From Candidatus Vampirococcus lugosii (GTDB lineage: Bacteria; Patescibacteriota; Gracilibacteria; Absconditabacterales; Absconditicoccaceae): 10,597 nucleotides of DNA. Position numbers and translations under genes: made by a program. This document shows, one piece after another, positions 1 to 10,597 of this stretch. Positions within the stretch are counted from its first letter, which is position 1, and the number at the start of each line of letters is the position of its first letter. The notes under the pieces are model-generated. The model did not search any database, was not told where the DNA came from, and saw only the letters and a program-made list of their open reading frames with translations. The stretch lies in contig NZ_JAEDAM010000036.1 of assembly GCF_018420025.1 (NCBI RefSeq), positions 1 through 10,597 of the forward strand. The letters run 5' to 3'.

Positions 1-1116
1 TTTTAAAAGAGGCTTTACTTCTCTATCAATATTTGTTTCATCTAAATGGAAACACACTTGTATATTTGTATCTGTATCAGGCAAGTAAAAATCTATCTCA
101 TTTTCATCTTCTTTATAAAATACTTTATTATATTTTGTTTTTAGATTTAGATAAATAAGATTTTCAAAGTTTTGTCAAAGATTGTCTATATATCAAAATA
201 AAGTTCAAAATCAAAAATTATATAGATATTTATTTGAAGTTTTTTTATAAAAATTGTTTATATCTTCAACAAAAAATATGTTTTTTAGATATTCATAATA
301 ATTATAGATAGTATTTTTTCATATCTTAATTCATTGAGATTGTAGATTATTGTATATTTTAATAAGATTTAGTCTTTTGGTATTTGAAAGTATTATTCTT
401 TTTATCAGATACCTTATAGCTTTTTCATTTTCTATACTATATCTTTCAGTTAGGTCTTTATAAAACAATATATCAAAATATATTTTTAAAAGCTCTGTTT
501 TTACCATAGAATTTTTAGATATGACAAGCTCAGGAAAGGTTCAATATTTTAATATATCATTAAAAACTGATTTTATATATCACCTTGTAGAAGAAGAATA
601 TTTTTTTTCTTTTTTTATATCTTTAAAATGAAGTATTTCATTAAAATCAAGAGGATTTACAAAGTATTCATACACTCTTCACCTAAATTCAGTTACTAAC
701 TCACTTGATAATAATTTTGAATTTGAACCTGATATAAAGATTTGATATCATTGAGTGTATAATTGCAATACTAATTTTTGAAAATTTTCTATATCTTGAA
801 CCTCATCAAAAACAAGTAAGGGTTTTTTATTGTTTCCTAAAGAGTAGTAGCTTTTTATTATATCTTCAGGATCTACCTTATCTCATGCAAATATTGAAAA
901 ATCTATAAAAACTACTTGTTCTATTGAGTATAAATTTTTATCTATAAGTTCTTTTATAAATTGAAACATAAGATAAGTTTTTCACACCCTCCTAGGTCAT
1001 ATAAAAGAAACTATTTTGTTTAATTCTAAAATTTCTTCCTCAAAACTATAATTTCTTTTTTTTAGTTTAAGATTTTTTAGCTTTTCTTGATTGTCTTTTA
1101 TGATTTGAGAAAACAT
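1..1116 (-). CDS. AAA+ ATPase, DUF4143/COG1373 type (C-terminus runs off the left edge of the window)
   Basis: ATG at 1116-1114, with an in-frame TAG 16 codons upstream. The frame stays open to nt 1 when TGA is sense; I checked 1-600 codon by codon and found no in-frame TAA/TAG. Walker A F-I-G-P-R-R-V-G-K-T lies at 976-1005, with both glycines encoded by TGA (997-999 and 982-984). Walker B is LLVFDEVQ. It is followed by GSNSKLLSSELVTEFRGR, KYGTFPE, and a C-terminal ...ENLIYLNL...EIDFY... region typical of this family. Confidence 0.85.
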
Positions 1117-1296
1117 TTTGTTATTTATAAGTAAATAATTAAATAGAGTTCTATTCTTTATCTATAGATAATATAATTATTTTTAAAATAAAATCAACTT
1201 TTTTAATATTCTTTTATATAATAACTCCATTTGCTATTTTTTATAAAATATAATTTTTAGCAAGTATACTTGTTAAAAATAAAAATATAAAGTTTT

Positions 1297-2523
1297 TTAT
1301 CTATTAAATAAATTATAATATTTTTTTATATTTTCATTCCAATTAAATTTTGTTTCTATAATTTTTTTATTTTCTCTAGAATAGTTTTCTTTTTTATCTA
1401 AACTATTTATTCATGCTATAAGTCATTTTTTAAGCTCTTTTAAACTATCATTTTTTAATAATATACCATTTTTATTATCCTCTACCACTTCTTTAGCTCA
1501 CTCGTAAGGAGTAGAAACTATAAAACATCATAAATTCATAGCTTGTAATAGAGTAGTTGCAAGTCATCAACCAGGACTTGAGGTATGAAAATGTATATCA
1601 AATTGTTTTTGTAAATTTATTGCTTCTTGAAAAGATTTTCATCAAGTAAAGTACACTCCAGGGTGCTTTCTCTTGCTTTGCAATTCACCTTGTAACTTAT
1701 TTTCAGTATCTATTTTGTTTAATCTTTCAAAATCTTCTCATTCACCAACAACTACAATTTGTATTTTATCTTTAATATTTTCATCTAAATCATAATAAGC
1801 CTTTATTAAGGTGTCTATATTTTTCCACTTATAAAGTCTTCAAATAAATCAAACTATTATCTTACCAGGATAGCTTTCTTTTAGATTTTCAACTTTTTCA
1901 TTACTTTTCAAATCAAACTGCATTCATCTATATATAACTTCCACTTTTTTATTTATAAACTCTTTTTGTACAAAATCTTTACAAGCATTACTAACTCAAA
2001 CTAGCTTGTCTGCTTTCTTAAATATCCATTTTCAAATTATTTTATCATATATCTTAGCTATAAAACTTTTAAATTTACTATTTAACTTCACATAATCACT
2101 TCCATGCTCTATATGACACCATTTTAAATTATTTTTTCTAGCAAATAATCATCATATCAAACTTGTTAAGAAAAATCTTGTTCTTGTTATAACTATATCA
2201 GTTTTTTTTGTTTTTAAATATTGTTTGATAAGTTTATATTCCTTTGACCATATCTTATACATTGGGAAATTTGAAATTATCTCAAAACTTGGAACTATAA
2301 GATTTTCAACTCATTTTTCTATATATCATATAGATTTTCATTCAAAAGTTATTTGATTTTCTTTAGATATCTTATCTTTTTGATCAAAATCAGTGATAAT
2401 ATTTATAACATCTCAAAAATTATTTTCTCTATACTTTTCTCAAAACTGTTTAGCATGAGTTTCAAGTCCTCACTTATGTGGAGGAAAATAGGGTAGAAAT
2501 TGGATGATATTCAATCTTTTCAT
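1297..2523 (-). CDS. Glycosyltransferase, family 4 (GT-B fold)
   Basis: ATG 2523-2521, TAA 1299-1297, 408 aa. Every codon was checked and no in-frame TAA/TAG was found. N-terminus is MKRLNIIQFLPYFPPHKGGLETH, a GGxE-type motif whose first G is TGA at 2470-2472. Further motifs: VGFIGRLYKWKNIDTLIKA, VVVGEGED, and HTSSPGGGLATTLLQAMNLGCFIVSTPYEGAKEVVEDNKNGILL, which is the GT4 C-terminal nucleotide-sugar region. Many conserved Gly are TGA. Confidence 0.85.
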
Positions 2524-2761
2524 ATTTTATTATAATATTTTAAACACTTTTTATATATATATTTTTTCTTTAAAATCAATTTATATTTAAGAATAATCTA
2601 ATTCTAAATTATATTTTTTAGCTATCTTTAAGTAAATTTAATAATTTTAATATTGTATAAATTTCTCAAAATAGATAATCAAATTCGTCAAAAGTATCTT
2701 GAAAATTATTTTTAATGAGAAGTTTCAAACTTTTCCAAAAGATTATTTATTATAGTATAAA

Positions 2762-3949
2762 TTATTTTTTATCCGTCAAACTATTTCAACAATTTGAACA
2801 AAAAGGCATTCATTGTACAGTATATTTTTTGCAATGAGGACAAGCAATTTGTATTTCATAAGAACAAAGAGCACAATATGGTTTTTTTATATCAACATGA
2901 TTTCAACAATTTGGACATTTTTTGTCTGCTACAAATCTTTTTATAATATTTTCTTTACTATAAAGTCTTTTTTGTATTTTATATACTATAAATCAAAAAA
3001 TTCAAATTATAAAAACTGGCCATATAAATTGAAGTAAATAAATAATAGGTTTGAATGCAGTCAAAAAATCTACTATATATTCAAAAATTCTATGAGGAAT
3101 TATATCCCATAAAAATAAAAGAATAACTTGTAATAAGATAAATCCATAAGCAAAACTTGCAACTGAAAATATTATAGAATAAGGACTATTTTCTTTTTTT
3201 AATTTTGAATATAGTTTATAAACTATCAAAAATATTATAATTGAAAATATAAAGCTCAATATAGCTATATATATTCTATATACAAGATATGCTTTATCAT
3301 ATTCTTTTTCTACTCTTTCTATTTTTCCTCTTAATTTACTTATTACAACACTATTTTTATCTATCAAATTTGTTATTTGATTTTCTTTATCATTAATAAG
3401 ATTTTTATTTTTTTCCAAATCATGATAAAGTTCTTGCAGTTTATATTGTATACTTCATTTATCATATATTTTATTATCTTCGTTGGCTATATCTTCAGTT
3501 AAAGAAGTATCATAATTTTTATTTGTATTTGAAATATTATTTTCTATATTTTCTTTTTTTCTTTCAAGATCATTTAATTCTTGTTTCAATTCTGTTATAT
3601 TTTTATAATCATTTATTAATTTATCATATTCACTTGTAAAATCATATTTAGGTTTTGAAGAAATTAATTTGTAGTTTGAACATTCCAAGTTATTAGAGTA
3701 ATAATTCCAATAATTTTTGTTTTCAAATGTATTAATCATTCTTTCTATGCAAAAAGGTAGATCTTGAGGTTTATCTGGTATATCTTGTATTATATTTATA
3801 GTCCATTGTGAAGTTGATATAATAGCAAAAAACATAAGAAAAAGTAAAAAATATCATCATTTAGTAGTTTGCTTCTCAGTAAGTTCTTCTCATATATTAT
3901 GTTTGATATTTGTTTTAAAAATATTCTTAATATATTTTAACATCTTCAT
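2762..3949 (-). CDS. Membrane protein with central coiled coil and C-terminal double zinc ribbon (hypothetical)
   Basis: ATG 3949-3947 (TAA three codons upstream), TAA 2764-2762, 395 aa. It joins track ORFs 3455..3835 and 3002..3418 (same frame, separated only by TGA 3455-3457) to an unlisted 80-codon tail after TGA 3002-3004. N-terminal TM is YFLLFLMFFAIISTS. It is followed by a K/E/N-rich heptad-like region and at least three hydrophobic helices (IYIAILSFIFSIIIFLIVY, IIFSVASFAYGFILLQVILLFLW, IIYLLQFIWPVFIIGIFGFIVY). The tail reads CPNCGNHV..CALC...CPHC..........CSNCG, and the G of both CxxCG knuckles is TGA (2903-2905, 2786-2788). Confidence 0.7.
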
Positions 3950-4043
3950 AATATTTAATTATATAAAATATATATTTTTTATATAAAGATATTTATTTTT
4001 TTTTCAAACTAAAATTTATTATAAAAAATATTAATATAAAAAT

Positions 4044-4077
4044 AAAAACTCATATGTTAAGTGTTATATGAGTTTTT
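4044..4077 (-). terminator. Rho-independent terminator-like hairpin downstream of the sensor gene
   Basis: Perfect 12-bp inverted repeat aaaaactcatat (4044-4055) / atatgagttttt (4066-4077) with a 10-nt loop, 12 nt past the TAA of the 4089..5504 gene. On the minus strand the stem is followed by atttttat. The stem is AT-rich (2 G:C pairs), as expected in this genome. Confidence 0.5.
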
Positions 4078-4088
4078 AGATTAATATT

Positions 4089-5504
4089 TTATTTTAATTC
4101 GTCTGTCAATACTGATAAATGTTTAATAATTCATTCTTTTTTTGCATTTAAATCTGTATTAATATAGTCATATATTTCTTTTAATAAGTCAAGATCTGGA
4201 GATTTTGAATATTTATCAATTTTATCTTTTATTGCTTTTGCCATAGAATGAAATTCTTCATGCTCAGATAATAAATTTTGATAAGTTCAATTTTTAGACA
4301 AATTATTCATATAAGGTTCAATTTCTCAAGAATACAAAAACTTTCATAAATTACAACTCTTATGATCAGATACTTCAAAATCACTTTGTCATAGTATGAA
4401 ATTATTAAATTTAATAATAAACATTAAATGTTCAAATTTAGCTATTTCAATTTGTGATATTGCTAAATCAAGTCATTCCAATTTTTCATGATAAAAATTT
4501 CTTAAGTCAGAAATTAATTGATGCAATATAGTATTCATTCATCAAATTTTTGAACTAAGATTTGTCAAAAGTTTATCTACATTAGATAATATAGTATCTA
4601 ATTCATCTTGTATAGTATTATCATTAATTAAATCTCATATATTAGATTCTATCTTTTCAGCTTCTAATTTTGATTTTTCTATAGATTTATTTAAGTCTTT
4701 TATAGATCATTGAACCAAATTTCATGCAAGTTCAGAAATTTCTCTAGTTTCATTTGCTATAACAGAGAAACCTTTACCTTCATCTCATATTCTTGCAGCT
4801 TCAATAGAACCATTTATAGAAATTATTTTAATTTGTTTAGATATTTCTTGTACTTTTTCATTATTTCATACAACACTAGAAAAAAGAGCTAAATCTTCGT
4901 TTAATTTATTAAGAGAATTTTGTAATGCAGAATTTATAAAATCTTTTTGATTTATAACTCAATTTTTGGATAATTCTACCATTCAACTTGTCATTTTAAG
5001 AGATATTCATAATTCAGAATAATATTCAATTAATTCATATAAAGACATTAAAGATTCTCTAAGTTTATTAATATGATTTATTTCTTTTACTTCAGAAGTA
5101 ATATCAGTAAATATTCATATATAATATTTTTTACCTCAAATTTCAATAACATTTGAACTAGATCAAACTATTCTATCTCAAGCTGGAACTGTTGCATTTC
5201 TCATACTATCTCAGGGTTTAAGATTAGATAATTTAGTTGCCGATCTTTTTGGTGTTTTATGAAAATCGTGCATTGAAGTTTTTCAATCTATAATATTTAC
5301 TCAAGTAGCATCATAAATAATTTTCCTACCTATAGCATTACTTTTAACAATTATTCAAGTTTCAAGGTCTTCTACAACAAATATTCATTCACTTTTTAAA
5401 ACATCAAAAATAGAATAAGCAAGATCTCTTTGTAATTTTGTCTCTTCTAATTCTTCTTTCAAATTTGAAATATTTTTAGTATTTGATAAAGTATTTAATA
5501 CCAT
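4089..5504 (-). CDS. Soluble chemoreceptor-like sensor: PAS-like domain + MCP signalling hairpin + CZB (chemoreceptor zinc-binding) domain
   Basis: ATG 5504-5502, TAA 4091-4089, 471 aa; the hand translation count matches the nucleotide length exactly. Residues ~25-140 are PAS-like (…IFVVEDLETGIIVKSNAIGRKIIYDATG…KKYYIGIFTDITSEV). The MCP tip is IKIISINGSIEAARIGDEGKGFSVIANETREISELAGN, with the G in ARIGDE encoded by TGA 4785-4787. The C-terminal CZB pattern is AKFEH…SDHKSCNLGKFLYSGE…SEHEEFH, with the G in CNLGK encoded by TGA 4344-4346. No hydrophobic TM segment. Confidence 0.85.
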
Positions 5505-5773
5505 AATAAAATTTATGTTATATATATAAAATATAAAAGTAAATTCTTATAAATAATAAATTTTAAAAGTCAATATTTTTTTGACTAATCTTCTGCACCT
5601 AAATTAGAGAAAAGAGTGAATAATGAATGTCTACTAATTTCTGATAAAGAAATATCTTTTGTTTTCAAAAATCACTGTACTATTATCTTTTATTAGTTTA
5701 ACTGAATCTTTTTTGTAATTATATGTAAGTTTATATAACTTATGATAATATAATAAAAATATATTTAAATTTA

Positions 5774-6097
5774 TTAGTCAATCCAAAAGTTGTTTGAACA
5801 ATAATCACATTTGATATATGATTCTTTTTTACATTTTTTTTGAATTTTTGCTCAACAATTAGGACAAATAATATTATTTAATTTAGTATTATTTTGTTTT
5901 GATGACTTGGTAAAATATTTCAATATAATATAAGGCATTCAAAAAAAAGAACTAATAACTAATCAACCCAAAACGACTTCAAATTCTGATTCTTCTCATA
6001 GAATAAAAGCTATAAAAAATAATAAAGAAATAAATAAGCAAATATAGAAAAGTATTTGTAATATAATTATTATCGTATTTTTTATTTTGATTCACAT
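5774..6097 (-). CDS. Small membrane protein with C-terminal zinc ribbon (hypothetical)
   Basis: ATG 6097-6095, TAA 5776-5774, 107 aa. All codons were checked and no in-frame TAA/TAG was found. It is absent from the ORF track because it contains 6 in-frame TGA. Sequence: MGIKIKNTIIIILQILFYICLFISLLFFIAFILGEE…VVLGGLVISSFFGMPYIIL (two hydrophobic helices), then CPNCGAKIQKKCKKESYIKCDYCSNNF. The G of CPNCG is TGA 5852-5854. Confidence 0.6.
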
Positions 6098-6272
6098 ATT
6101 TAATTTTATTAATTAGAAGTATAAAAAAAATTATTATTTACTAATGAATTTATAATAAAATTTTTGAAAAATACAAGAAATAATAAAAAAACTTGCAAAA
6201 TAAAAATGGCGAACTATTTGCTAGCTTATTTTTTTTAGATTAAAAGTTTGAAACTACAAGTATTGAAATTCT

Positions 6273-7052
6273 TTACTTTATATTTTCTATTATTTTTTCT
6301 TGAAATAAAGGAGAAGACCAAATATTATTATGTCCTTTATTTTTAATTAATATATATTTTTTATCTTTACTAGGAACTTTTTCAAATAATTTTTTAGAAA
6401 ATTTGTTAGGTATTACTAAATCATTGTCTCAATGAAGAATTAATAATGAGCCTTCATAATTTTGTAGGTATTTAATGTTATCAAATTTTTCTTTCAAAAG
6501 AATATTGGCAGGATAGATAATATATTTTGATTGAACAAGATCAACTAATTTTCAAAAAGGTGTAGTTAATATTAATTTATTTACATTTCATATACTAGCA
6601 TGATAGCTAGCAGGACCAGAACCAATACTCTCGCCATAAATAATTATTTTTTTGTATCATTTTTCTTCAATGTAATTTTTAATATTTATAGCATCTTTAA
6701 GAATTAAATTCTTGGATGGTCTAACTGTATCATTTGAATATCATGCATATTCAACAAAAACTAATGAGGCATTTGATTTTTCAAATATAGATTTGAAATA
6801 ACTTCTATCACAAGCTGATCATGCATTTCAATGATAGTAAACAATGACTTTATCTTTATTATTATTCTTGAAATAAAATCTTGTTCCATTAAAATTTATT
6901 TTTTCATATTCATTAAATCCATCACATTTATCAAAATCTTGATTATTTGGATAATATAACATTGTTTTTTGATTAAAAAATAATAACATACCAATTATTA
7001 TATAAATAATTGTAATTAAAATAAAAATAGAAACTAATATTTTTGTATACAT
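6273..7052 (-). CDS. Membrane-anchored alpha/beta-fold serine hydrolase (COG1073/BEM46-like)
   Basis: ATG 7052-7050, TAA 6275-6273, 259 aa. It extends track ORF 6828..7052 through TGA 6828-6830. N-terminal anchor is ILVSIFILITIIYIIIGMLLFF. Motifs: oxyanion-hole YYHGNAGSA (first G is TGA 6828-6830), EYAGYS, nucleophile elbow GESIGSG (6615-6635), acid motif LHGDNDLVIP (G is TGA 6429-6431), and catalytic His in KGHNN. Confidence 0.85.
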
Positions 7053-7310
7053 AATAATACATTTAGTAATTTTTATAAAAAGTGTTAAAATTTATTTATA
7101 TAATATATTTTTTATAAAAATTTTCAACTTAATATCTTTTCTTATTAGTAGATATTATGGTGGAAATAAAAAAGTTAAATATATTTGTGGAATTAAAGAT
7201 GTTAATATAATAGAAATTTTAAAATAAAAATATTTTTAGTTTAAAATTGTTTATTACTAAGTTTCTGCATTAAAAATGCACTGAAATTAATTTTTGGTAT
7301 TTTTAAATTA

Positions 7311-7340
7311 AAAAATATAAAAAAATATAAAAAAATATTA
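7311..7340. repeat. Three phased 10-bp A-tract units (aaaaatataa aaaaatataa aaaaatatta)
   Basis: Direct reading of 7311-7340 shows a 10-bp period, which matches the helical repeat. It lies about 25 bp upstream of the candidate promoter for the CCA-enzyme gene. Confidence 0.6.
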
Positions 7341-7365
7341 AATTGCAAGACTAATAAATTTCCTC

Positions 7366-7394
7366 TTGAAATATGATATATAAATAGATATATT
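7366..7394 (+). promoter_or_regulatory. Candidate sigma70-like promoter for the CCA-adding enzyme gene
   Basis: TTGAAA (7366-7371), a 17-bp spacer, then TATATT (7389-7394), about 50 bp upstream of ATG 7444. This is weak evidence, because such hexamers arise by chance in DNA this AT-rich. Confidence 0.25.
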
Positions 7395-7443
7395 ATTTAT
7401 TGATAATAAGAAAATTATTTTTAAACTAATTAATTTTATAAAA

Positions 7444-9162
7444 ATGCTTAATTTAGATTGAATTAATATTTTGGATAAACATTTTAAATATTTGAAAACA
7501 AAGATAAATAAAGAAAATATTTTTATAGTTTGATGAAGTATTAGAGATATACTTTTGGATATTGAAAAAGATCCTAAAGATATAGATATTACAACGGATC
7601 AAGATCCGCAAACTATATTTTCTCAAATAAAACAAGAAGAAATTTCTATTTTTAAAACTGATAAATTTGGTACAATAACTATTGTTCCCAAATGACAAGA
7701 TTCAAATATTGAAAAAGTGAAATATGAATTAACTCCATTGAGAAGTGAATGACAATATGATGATTTTCGTCATCCTTGAAAAATAAATCGAACAAATAAT
7801 ATAGTTTTAGATAGTAAGAGAAGAGATTTTACAATAAATTGTCTTTACTATTTTAGTATTGATTTAGATTATATAAAACCTAATTATAACAAGATAAAAG
7901 ATGAATTAGATTTAATAAAAAAATTAAAAAAAAATTGAAAAGTTTTTCTTTTAGACAAAAATATTTTGATAATAAAAGATAAAGAATTGATCAATAAATT
8001 ATTTCCAAATGCTAATCTTGATATAGAAATTTTGAAAGATATTATAAAAAATAATTCTTATAATATAAGTAATGATTTTGTTGATAAAAAAAATATAAGT
8101 ATAATAATAGATCCTTGGTGAGGTATTGAAGATATATTAAATAAAAAAATTAAAGCTGTATGAGAAGCAGATTCTAGATTTCAAGAAGATGCTTTGAGAA
8201 TTATAAGATGAGTTAGAATTCCAAATATATTAAATCAAAAAATAAAAAAAGATAAAAATAAAATAAAAGAAACTATTTTTTTTGATTATGATTGAGAAAC
8301 TTGGGCTAGTATGAAAAAAAATTATTTCTTGGTACAATTTATAGCAAAAGAAAGAATTAAAGATGAAATAATGAAAGTTTTTATTGCTGATAATCCTTTT
8401 GGATTTGTTGTATTGCTTGATGAATTAAATATATTAAAATATATATTCCCATATTTGTATATGACAAAAAATAATAATCAACCTGTAAGATATCATGCAT
8501 TTGATACTTATGCTCATACTATTTTGTGTTTTTATAATATACAATTTATAAATAAAGATCCTTTAGTTAGATTTGCTATGTTATATCATGATGTAGGTAA
8601 ACCGGATCAATATTACTGTTCAAGTTTATTGGATAGAGAAGAAAGAAAAAAAATACATTCTATGCGAATAAACCATTCAACTTGTTGAGCAGATATGACA
8701 TTACAAGATTTTAAAAAATTATGATTTTCCAAAAAAGAATGTGAAACTATTAGTTTTTATGTAAAAGAACATTTATTGGCTTGAGAAATATTGTCTTGAA
8801 AAGAAAAAAATATTATTAAAAAAATAAAAAAATTATTATCATCAATATGATACAAAAAATTACAAAATTTGATAGATATATGTATAGCAGATAGAAGATG
8901 ACAATATAATCCTCTCCAGTTAGAAAATGTAGATGTATTACAAAATTTAAAAAAATTAATTGATGAAATATATGAAAAACAATGAGAATTTACACAAAAA
9001 GATTTAAAAATTGATGGTAATATCGTGATTGAAGAAATGCAAATAAATCCTTGACCTCAAGTATGAATCTTATTACAAAAAGCTTTGAATTGGGTAATAC
9101 AAGATATTGATAATAGAAATAATAAAGAAATAATAATTGAATATTTAAATAAAAATATGTAA
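7444..9162 (+). CDS. cca: Class II tRNA nucleotidyltransferase (CCA-adding enzyme) with C-terminal HD domain
   Basis: ATG 7444, TAA 9160-9162, 572 aa, in frame with track ORF 8311..8688. Motifs: IFIVGGSIRDILL (GG is TGA-TGA at 7531-7536), DIDITT, LRSEGQYDDFRHPG, RRDFTIN (7819-7839), [37 protein letters not shown] (from 8110; TGG for W is immediately followed by TGA for G at 8119-8121). HD-domain motifs are YHAFDTYAHT and LYHDVGKP. I cannot separate CCA-adding from CC-/A-adding or poly(A) polymerase activity from sequence alone. Confidence 0.88.
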
Positions 9163-9243
9163 TCTCGATAATGATATAATAAAAATATAAATAAATTGAG
9201 ATAAATAAAAATGAGATTTTGAATAATAAGAAAAAATATTTTT

Positions 9244-10597
9244 TTATAAAGAATTATTTATAATATTTAATTCTTCAATTTTTTCTTTTTGATATTTTAG
9301 TTGTCTATATAAATCATCTAAATCTTGATTACAATTATATTTATTTTCTTCACACCATTGTATATCAGCTTTTAAAATATCTACCATTCTTTTGGCATCT
9401 TTTAGTTTTTGTTCATCATTACGATTATCTTTTCAAGATACAAAATCAATAATTTTTCAAACTTTTTTACCTACATCTTTTGATATTTTTTCAATTCATT
9501 TATCTATATTTAATAATTTTCAAGGTCTTAAATTTTTTAGTTTATTTCAAAATTTTTCAATTTGTAATGATAGCTTGGGAGATATTTTGTATACCATATT
9601 ACTAACATTTGACACCATAGTTCAAACAGTATCAATAGTTTTATCTACTGGATTATTTTTTAAAAGTTCATTTGCAATTCCATTTAGATATCAAGTAACT
9701 TTTGCTTGTACTTGTGACATACCTTTATTTTCATAATTTTTTATTTTATCTTTTATAGTTTGAATTTTTTGATAAGTGTTAAAAACTTTCAATAATTTTG
9801 ATCAATTTTTTGTTTTTTTGAGATGATTTTTTATACTTTCTTCATTAAGATATTTATTTTTTATAAATTGTTCAGGTTTATCTATAATATTTTTTATTTT
9901 TATAATTTTTTCAATTTCATCTTTATTTTTTGATTTTAAATTTTTAATAAATTCTTGTTGTTTTTTATTTTTGTATTCATCAGCTTTTTTTCTTACAAAT
10001 TCTTCTGGATCATCTTGAAATTTTTTATAATCATCATATATTAATGACCAGTATTTTTCCTTTCTTTTTAAATCATTATTTTTTGATTTTAAATTTTTAA
10101 TAAATTCTTGTTGTTTTTTATTTTTGTATTCATCAGCTTTTTTTCTTACAAATCCTTCTGGATCATCTTGAAATTTTTTATAATCATCATATATTAATGA
10201 CCAGTATTTTTTCTTTCTTTTTAAATCATTATTTATTTCTTTTAATTCATTTGAATATTTTCTCAAATCATTTTTAATTTCATTTATATTGTTCTTTCAA
10301 CTTTTAATAATTTTAAAAAGTCAATTAGAATTTTGAAAAACATTTTTAATTTTTTCTTCATTATCCAATATTTCTTCTATTTTTAAAGTTCAAGTATTTA
10401 TTTTTTTTATAATTGAATCTATATCTTTGATACCATCATCAACTTTATTAAAAATATTGTCCAATTCATTATTTGCATTATTTTCATTATTTTCATTATT
10501 TTCATTATTTTCATTATTTTCATTATTTTCATTATTTTCATTATTTTCATTATTTTCATTATTTTCATTATTTTCATTATTTTCATTATTTTCATTA
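9244..10597 (-). CDS. K/N/E-rich repeat-containing coiled-coil protein (hypothetical; N-terminus beyond the right edge)
   Basis: TAA 9246-9244. The frame is open from 9247 to 10597 with TGA as sense, checked codon by codon outside the track ORF 9802..10266 that it extends in both directions. It reads (NNE)n-NNANNELDNIFNKVDDGIKDIDS…, then two 51-aa repeats NNDLKRK(K/E)KYWSLIYDDYKKFQDDPE(G/E)FVRKKADEYKNKKQQEFIKNLKSK, then …VTGYLNGIANELLKNNPVDKTIDTVGTMVSNVSNMVYKISPKL…QWCEENKYNCNQDLDDLYRQLKYQKEKIEELNIINNSL. I recognised no known domain. Confidence 0.7.
9923..10234. repeat. Tandem duplication, 2 x 153 bp (51 codons), inside the repeat protein gene
   Basis: Position-by-position alignment of 9923-10075 against 10076-10228 (offset 153) gives only two mismatches: 10001 t vs 10154 c, and 10059 c vs 10212 t. 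Homology continues a few bases, to 10234. Confidence 0.9.
10465..10597. repeat. 9-bp coding microsatellite (ttcattatt)n, about 14.8 units, truncated by the window end
   Basis: Units start at 10465, 10474, 10483 and so on. Only the second unit differs (tgcattatt). It is in frame with the 9244..10597 gene and encodes (Asn-Asn-Glu)n on the minus strand. Confidence 0.95.

Follow-up and report, generated by a model that had tools for sequence, protein, structure and literature searches.

The stretch of DNA analysed here, referred to throughout as the window, comprises the 10,597 bp of contig NZ_JAEDAM010000036.1, has a GC content of 19.9% and was examined with regard to the genetic code in which its genes are written. 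Two codons are of particular concern: TGA, which was found to specify glycine, and CGA, which very probably specifies tryptophan. When TAA and TAG alone are taken as stop codons, the window resolves into eight genes occupying 86% of its length, seven of which are located on the minus strand and one (g7) on the plus strand. These genes, together with motifs in which TGA occupies a glycine position and the two CGA codons, are listed below (aa, amino acids; GGN, the four standard glycine codons).

g1, 1-1116, minus strand: ATPase of the AAA_14/DUF4143 type; its 3' end lies beyond the window and no stop is seen; 13 TGA versus 2 GGN codons
Walker A motif G-P-R-R-V-G-K-T of g1, 997-999 and 982-984, minus strand: both glycines are encoded by TGA
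g2, 1297-2523, minus strand: GT4-family glycosyltransferase of 408 aa with a TAA stop; 22 TGA versus 8 GGN codons
g3, 2762-3949, minus strand: membrane protein of 395 aa with a coiled-coil region, a C-terminal double zinc ribbon and a TAA stop; 9 TGA codons
CxxCG knuckles of g3, 2903-2905 and 2786-2788, minus strand: glycine encoded by TGA
g4, 4089-5504, minus strand: protein of 471 aa with an MCP signalling domain, a C-terminal CZB zinc-binding domain and a TAA stop; 25 TGA versus 5 GGN codons
Receptor tip EAARIGDEGKGF of g4, 4785-4787, minus strand: glycine encoded by TGA
g5, 5774-6097, minus strand: small membrane protein of 107 aa with a C-terminal zinc ribbon and a TAA stop; 5 TGA codons; with TGA as a stop there would be no open frame
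g6, 6273-7052, minus strand: alpha/beta hydrolase of 259 aa with a TAA stop; 7 TGA codons
Motifs of g6 containing TGA, minus strand: HGNAG (6828-6830 and 6819-6821) and LHGDND (6429-6431)
g7, 7444-9162, plus strand: CCA-adding tRNA nucleotidyltransferase of 572 aa with an HD domain and a TAA stop; 20 TGA, 5 GGN, 3 TGG and 2 CGA codons
CGA codon at residue 116 of g7, 7789-7791, plus strand: best read as Trp, not Arg
CGA codon at residue 408 of g7, 8665-8667, plus strand: best read as Trp; aromatic column
g8, 9244-10596, minus strand: repeat protein rich in Asn, Glu and Lys with a TAA stop; its 5' end lies beyond the window; 11 TGA codons

The frames bounded by TAA or TAG measure 592, 485, 450, 409, 398, 387 and 272 codons, with one further frame of 112 codons; the longest TAA/TAG-free run obtained in each of 300 shuffles averaged 98 codons and reached a maximum of 176. 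Under the standard code, the longest open reading frame (ORF) in the window is just 164 codons in length. Across the sense frames of the eight genes (3,034 codons) TGA occurs 112 times, while TAA and TAG do not occur at all; when these regions are read in their five remaining frames, TAA and TAG number in the hundreds. All seven visible stop codons are TAA, TAG being unused, and the remaining gene, g1, leaves the window before its stop, while g8 has no start within it.

These counts agree with a preliminary description of the window, according to which the long frames are interrupted by TGA only and the standard-code ORFs are artefacts, as translation with NCBI table 11 indeed breaks every gene. 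The TGA codons reported there were all found to lie in frame (997-999, 982-984, 7531-7536, 8119-8121, 8161-8163, 6828-6830, 6429-6431, 2470-2472, 2903-2905, 2786-2788, 5852-5854, 4785-4787 and 4344-4346), and 8116-8118 is TGG as had been indicated. The same account listed eight genes with clean TAA stops: the eight genes stand, but a TAA is seen in seven of them, given that g1 runs off the window. Antisense frames free of TAA and TAG also occur (for example 4495-5022 on the plus strand, 7338-7844 on the minus strand and 9230-9736 on the plus strand) and were dismissed as shadows of the genes, their length of 168-175 codons being within the shuffle maximum.

One could suppose that the code is standard and that the TGA codons are real stops, the genes being pseudogenes, affected by sequencing errors, or expressed by way of selenocysteine incorporation or programmed read-through. 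The only point in favour of this reading is that standard-code ORF callers return fragments. Against it, two short Logan contigs, from SRR13241708 and SRR13241709, match parts of the window at 99.98% and 99.6% identity, the former representing an independent assembly with the same sequence; furthermore, TGA falls on invariant glycines of several protein families and the same pattern recurs in relatives of the organism. The occurrence of 112 TGA and not one TAA or TAG in the eight sense frames, the conservation and the independent assembly exclude this reading, whose probability we consider to be next to nil.

The meaning of TGA as a sense codon is reflected in amino acid composition. With TGA translated as glycine, Gly constitutes 4.9% and Trp 0.56% of residues, while translation as tryptophan results in 1.2% Gly and 4.25% Trp; a normal composition is therefore obtained only if TGA encodes glycine. 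TGA then accounts for 112 of the 148 glycine codons in the window (76%).

Profile scores were obtained for domain segments joined from five genes, which contain 45 TGA codons, with six candidate residues being substituted at TGA. Summed over seven Pfam families, glycine scored 429 bits, followed by serine (375), alanine (373), arginine (359), cysteine (349) and tryptophan (337), and glycine ranked first in each family. When the individual genes were scanned, all Pfam families scored higher with glycine than with tryptophan; the respective scores were 98.7 and 77.5 bits for AAA_14 in g1, where DUF4143 exceeded the Pfam cut-off only with glycine; 91.0 and 70.3 for Glycos_transf_1 and 71.1 and 42.7 for Glyco_trans_1_4 in g2; 45.2 and 38.9 for MCPsignal and 38.5 and 23.2 for CZB in g4, which also matches NCBIfam MCP models; 39.5 and 29.9 for Hydrolase_4 and 29.6 and 18.0 for Abhydrolase_1 in g6; and 82.7 and 66.1 for PolyA_pol in g7, whose family matches further include PolyA_pol_RNAbd, HD and, in NCBIfam, CCA tRNA nucleotidyltransferase. 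The sub-threshold matches of g3 follow the same direction, DZR scoring 25.5 bits with glycine and 21.3 with tryptophan, and Zn_ribbon_3 being matched with glycine only. A hidden Markov model (HMM) was also built from 10 CCA-adding enzymes of standard-code members of the Candidate Phyla Radiation (CPR), against which all 20 amino acids were tried at the TGA positions: glycine attained 263.1 bits and serine, in second place, 239.9, while tryptophan attained 220.2.

Codon-level alignment of g7 with 39 loci of the SR1 clade and 15 standard-code loci allowed the codons at each position to be compared directly (743 clade cells at TGA columns). Where the window has TGA, the clade loci have GGN in 33.5% and TGA in 29.2% of cells, and TGG in none; where the window has GGN, 31% of the clade codons are TGA; and where it has TGG, 29% are TGG and none is TGA. 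For g2, matches in the PDB proved too remote (E ~1e-4) for column counts and a codon alignment with 18 metagenome relatives was employed instead, in which the TGA columns (322 cells) comprise 60% TGA, 18% GGN and 0% TGG. Among the standard-code homologues of g7 (Woesebacteria, Roizmanbacteria, Saccharibacteria and others) glycine makes up 54.5% of the aligned cells at TGA columns and tryptophan is absent, and of the 16 TGA positions that could be aligned, 10 have glycine as their most frequent residue. CCA-adding enzymes in the PDB, when aligned to g7, possess GG at residues 30-31 and G at residues 226 and 240. A strict 'mini-Codetta' procedure, confined to columns of at least 70% conservation, likewise assigned TGA to glycine (73% of 244 cells), while Trp columns were too few for a call on CGA, whose reading is based on a less strict analysis of columns.

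The sum of TGA and GGN codons per CCA gene is approximately constant among the relatives (30 +/- 5), and the share contributed by TGA declines as GC content rises (Spearman rho -0.81, p = 2e-9), as would be expected if AT pressure acts on synonymous codons. TGA is thus a glycine codon by every test that was run. The preliminary description had proposed this assignment and suggested that profile scores and homologue columns be consulted; both, together with codon interchange and composition, bear it out, and columns aligning mainly to tryptophan, one of the patterns named there as contrary evidence, were not encountered.

These results bear directly on NCBI table 4, the Mycoplasma-type code, in which an AT-rich bacterium reads TGA as tryptophan. 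Table 4, which is used by Mycoplasmatales, Entomoplasmatales and several insect endosymbionts, resembles the code of the window in its AT-rich setting, in the clear use of UGA as a sense codon and in retaining UAA as a stop, and one database copy of the g7 protein (P0001) was in fact produced with it, W standing at each of the 20 TGA positions. The difference lies in the residue inserted, tryptophan in table 4 and glycine in the window. Under table 4 the window would have the excess of Trp and deficit of Gly noted above; moreover, TGG is never seen in the 1,065 relatives' cells at TGA columns (743 and 322 in the two alignments), and tryptophan is lacking at these columns in standard-code homologues and performs close to worst in both the HMM and the Pfam tests. 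Composition, codon interchange, homologues and profile scores all reject table 4, and we regard it as extremely unlikely.

CGA occurs twice among the 3,041 codons of the window codon table, both times in g7, and CGG does not occur. At the first CGA (7789-7791), the SR1 clade has 30 CGA, eight TGG and two CGG codons, while the standard-code relatives have nine W, three Y, two F and one I; the PDB enzymes have Phe, and W exceeds R by 6 bits in the standard-code HMM. The column of the second CGA (8665-8667) is aromatic: Tyr is found in the nearest relatives (loci L003 and L004), TGG in L005 and L037 and Phe in standard-code CPR relatives, and the HMM places F, Y and W 3-5 bits above R. Three more g7 columns alternate between TGG and CGA or CGG across the SR1 clade, and CGG in the relatives occupies the same columns as TGG and CGA.

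Arginine positions provide the converse evidence. At 21 columns with conserved Arg, the 541 Arg codons of the SR1 clade comprise 362 AGA, 72 AGG, 78 CGT and 29 CGC, and not a single CGA or CGG, while in the standard-code relatives 65 of 237 codons at these columns are CGA or CGG; the window itself uses AGA 12 times and CGT once. Genes for tRNA(UCG) were found in two distant relatives (L034 and L041) and carry G73 and U20; G73 without A20 in tRNA(UCG) constitutes a Trp-type signature according to Shulgina and Eddy (PMC8629427). The same authors reported that, besides UGA to Gly, Absconditabacteria have reassigned both CGA and CGG to Trp (Shulgina and Eddy 2021, eLife, PMC8629427; restated in PMC13092985). 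The window and its clade resemble this system in that CGA is placed in Trp or aromatic columns and avoided at conserved Arg, in the rarity of CGN codons and the predominance of AGA among those for Arg, and, as far as the two relatives are concerned, in a tRNA(UCG) with G73 and no A20; they differ in that the window offers two CGA codons and no CGG.

On the basis of these codon columns CGA very probably means tryptophan in the window organism, and CGG, by analogy with the clade, would do so as well. The preliminary description had read both CGA codons as arginine, which is probably wrong given the aromatic nature of the two columns and the preference of the HMM for W, F or Y. If CGA is tryptophan, the correct translation of the window is NCBI table 25 supplemented with CGA and CGG as Trp, table 25 alone being incomplete, and an origin in Absconditabacteria is favoured over one in Gracilibacteria/BD1-5.

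Several observations weigh against these assignments or limit their reach. With regard to TGA, six of the 16 alignable positions in g7 fall in variable columns that are not glycine, as do some GGN codons; the window contains no tRNA gene, and ARAGORN detected no tRNA(UCA) in approximately 0.6 Mb of the flanks of relatives (58 SR1-type loci). With regard to CGA, the claim for the window organism concerns two codons only, CGG being unused, and the evidence from the clade is transferred to an organism whose nearest genome representative, the GTDB species genome of L003, shares only 60% identity in g7. Moreover, column 837 of the g7 alignment is the sole column in the clade to mix CGA with true Arg codons. 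At this column, which corresponds to residue 457 of the window protein (ATT, 8812-8814), loci L003-L041 have nine CGA codons beside eight AGA, five CGC, two CGT and two AGG. Either residue, Trp or Arg, may be tolerated at this site, the ancestral meaning of CGA as Arg may have left a trace here, or some members may still read CGA as Arg.

The rival that these points would favour is plain NCBI table 25, in which TGA is Gly and both CGA codons remain Arg. Apart from the paucity of CGA and the mixed column, it can draw on the fact that L003, the closest relative, has no CGA in g7. It is contradicted by the location of both CGA codons in Trp or aromatic columns, where W, F or Y exceeds R by 3-6 bits, by the 0 of 541 clade codons at conserved Arg positions as opposed to 65 of 237 in standard-code relatives, and by the published reassignment in Absconditabacteria (PMC8629427). 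We consider plain table 25 unlikely, and tryptophan remains the preferred reading of CGA.

The databases contain over 1,300 relatives of the g7 protein, whose best named full-length matches are assigned to Candidatus Absconditabacteria, Absconditabacterales, Absconditicoccaceae or candidate division SR1. The placement is based on these best matches. Exact-match DNA searches found the window itself neither in the GTDB species genomes nor in the JGI metagenomes, the two Logan contigs being the only sequences to match it, and the literature searched makes no mention of their runs. That the source would be one of the two lineages with UGA as Gly had already been anticipated, and the nearest relatives are indeed Absconditabacteria/SR1 metagenome-assembled genomes. 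The GC content of this clade was given as 0.21-0.53 in 2021 (PMC8629427). The window represents a new member of the clade without a close genome representative, at its AT-rich extreme.

Similarly AT-rich sequences were observed among the relatives of the GT4 gene (L057-L072; JGI contigs Ga0114934, Ga0256827/29/40/43, Ga0100392/93 and PDWI01), which have 17-28% GC and contain 19-28 in-frame TGA codons in full-length genes and 5-20 in shorter fragments. They constitute a set of extremely AT-rich organisms in which TGA is Gly, some of which lie under the 0.21 bound. A further observation relates to the naming of records: L003, L004, L006, L008 and others have a CCA enzyme and codon usage of the SR1 type, yet are recorded as 'uncultured Candidatus Peribacteria bacterium', and L032 as Candidatus Gracilibacteria. 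The CCA gene of L003 and L004 contains 18-25 in-frame TGA codons, and the names of these records are therefore a poor guide to genetic code.

Based on the findings of this study, it is highly probable that the window belongs to the chromosome of an extremely AT-rich absconditabacterium (SR1; GTDB class JAEDAM01) with UGA as Gly and, very probably, CGA and by extension CGG as Trp. In such an organism, AT mutational pressure would replace GGN by TGA and thereby make UGA the main glycine codon, with UAA serving as the working stop codon. As may be supposed from the literature on the clade, UGA would be read by a tRNA-Gly(UCA), release factor 2 would have been lost, and a Trp-charged tRNA(UCG) would read CGA and CGG.

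Two variations on this conclusion deserve mention. Among the 3,041 codons TAG, CGG, CGC, GCG and GGG are absent, and TCG appears a single time; there is a small chance that the window derives from an undescribed lineage of genus or family level within the Absconditabacterales, more AT-rich than those of the 2021 survey, in which unused GC-rich codons are unassigned or reassigned. In addition, the window may be thought to derive from a phage or other mobile element which uses the code of its SR1 host. When the window was compared by tblastn with the CCA-enzyme loci of 39 related genomes, no synteny was revealed, and AGG usage in g1 is odd, both of which would suit such an element. However, the genes present are of a cellular housekeeping or envelope nature (the CCA-adding enzyme, the GT4 transferase, the hydrolase and the chemoreceptor-like protein) and no phage or plasmid hallmark emerged from the Pfam and NCBIfam scans of the window. 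A mobile origin is accordingly judged very unlikely, and the conclusion on the code would be unchanged by it. The AGG bias itself consists in g1 containing five of the six AGG codons of the window, including those for both Arg residues of the Walker A motif GPRRVGKT, and might mean that g1 has a different history, for example that it was transferred horizontally within the clade.

The window does not present a new code, since table 25 has been known since 2013 and its CGA/CGG extension since 2021. The former, the NCBI code for SR1 and Gracilibacteria, goes back to Campbell et al. 2013 and Rinke et al. 2013, to which both PMC8629427 and the gTranslate preprint (10.64898/2026.05.24.727570) refer. 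The window shares with table 25 the assignment of UGA to Gly, the UAA stop, an AT-rich genome and Absconditabacteria/SR1 relatives. It departs from it in the CGA codons, which table 25 keeps, with CGG, as Arg and which here behave as Trp, and from the clade described for it in its GC content of 19.9%, under the 0.21-0.53 range (PMC8629427), and in the use of TGA as the majority (76%) glycine codon.

The value of this analysis is mainly practical, in that a known alternative code is read correctly, which is a useful annotation call rather than a discovery. Annotation with table 11 fragments all of the genes, that with table 4 introduces 112 false Trp residues into the eight proteins and even table 25 mistranslates the CGA codons. 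Public SR1 proteins were observed to be translated inconsistently, Logan-derived entries with table 4 and NCBI entries with table 25, neither of which renders CGA as Trp; this inconsistency distorts identity values and family profiles. From an evolutionary perspective, the window is an unusually AT-rich addition to a clade which already has two codon reassignments, and the predominance of UGA over GGN as glycine codon represents codon capture at a late, 'rebound' stage, which helps in studying how reassigned codons spread.

With regard to the remaining features of the window, no tRNA or tmRNA gene and no Rfam family was detected within it. A PDB search with g1 returned no match, and g5 has a weak match to a YnfU-type zinc-binding family in NCBIfam. 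The g4 product lacks a predicted signal or transmembrane start, and represents a chemoreceptor-like protein in a reduced-genome bacterium of the SR1 type; none of its chemotaxis partners is encoded inside the window. For g8, Pfam and NCBIfam yielded no family match. This gene contains, at 9901-10245 and 10465-10597 of the window (minus strand), a 153-bp tandem repeat of 2.3 copies with a 92% match, which duplicates a block of approximately 51 aa, as well as a 9-bp repeat, present in 14.8 copies, from which an (Asn-Glu-Asn)n tract extending past the window edge is translated. Both Logan contigs of the same organism stop at position 9952, within the 153-bp repeat, indicating that short-read assemblies are broken by it.

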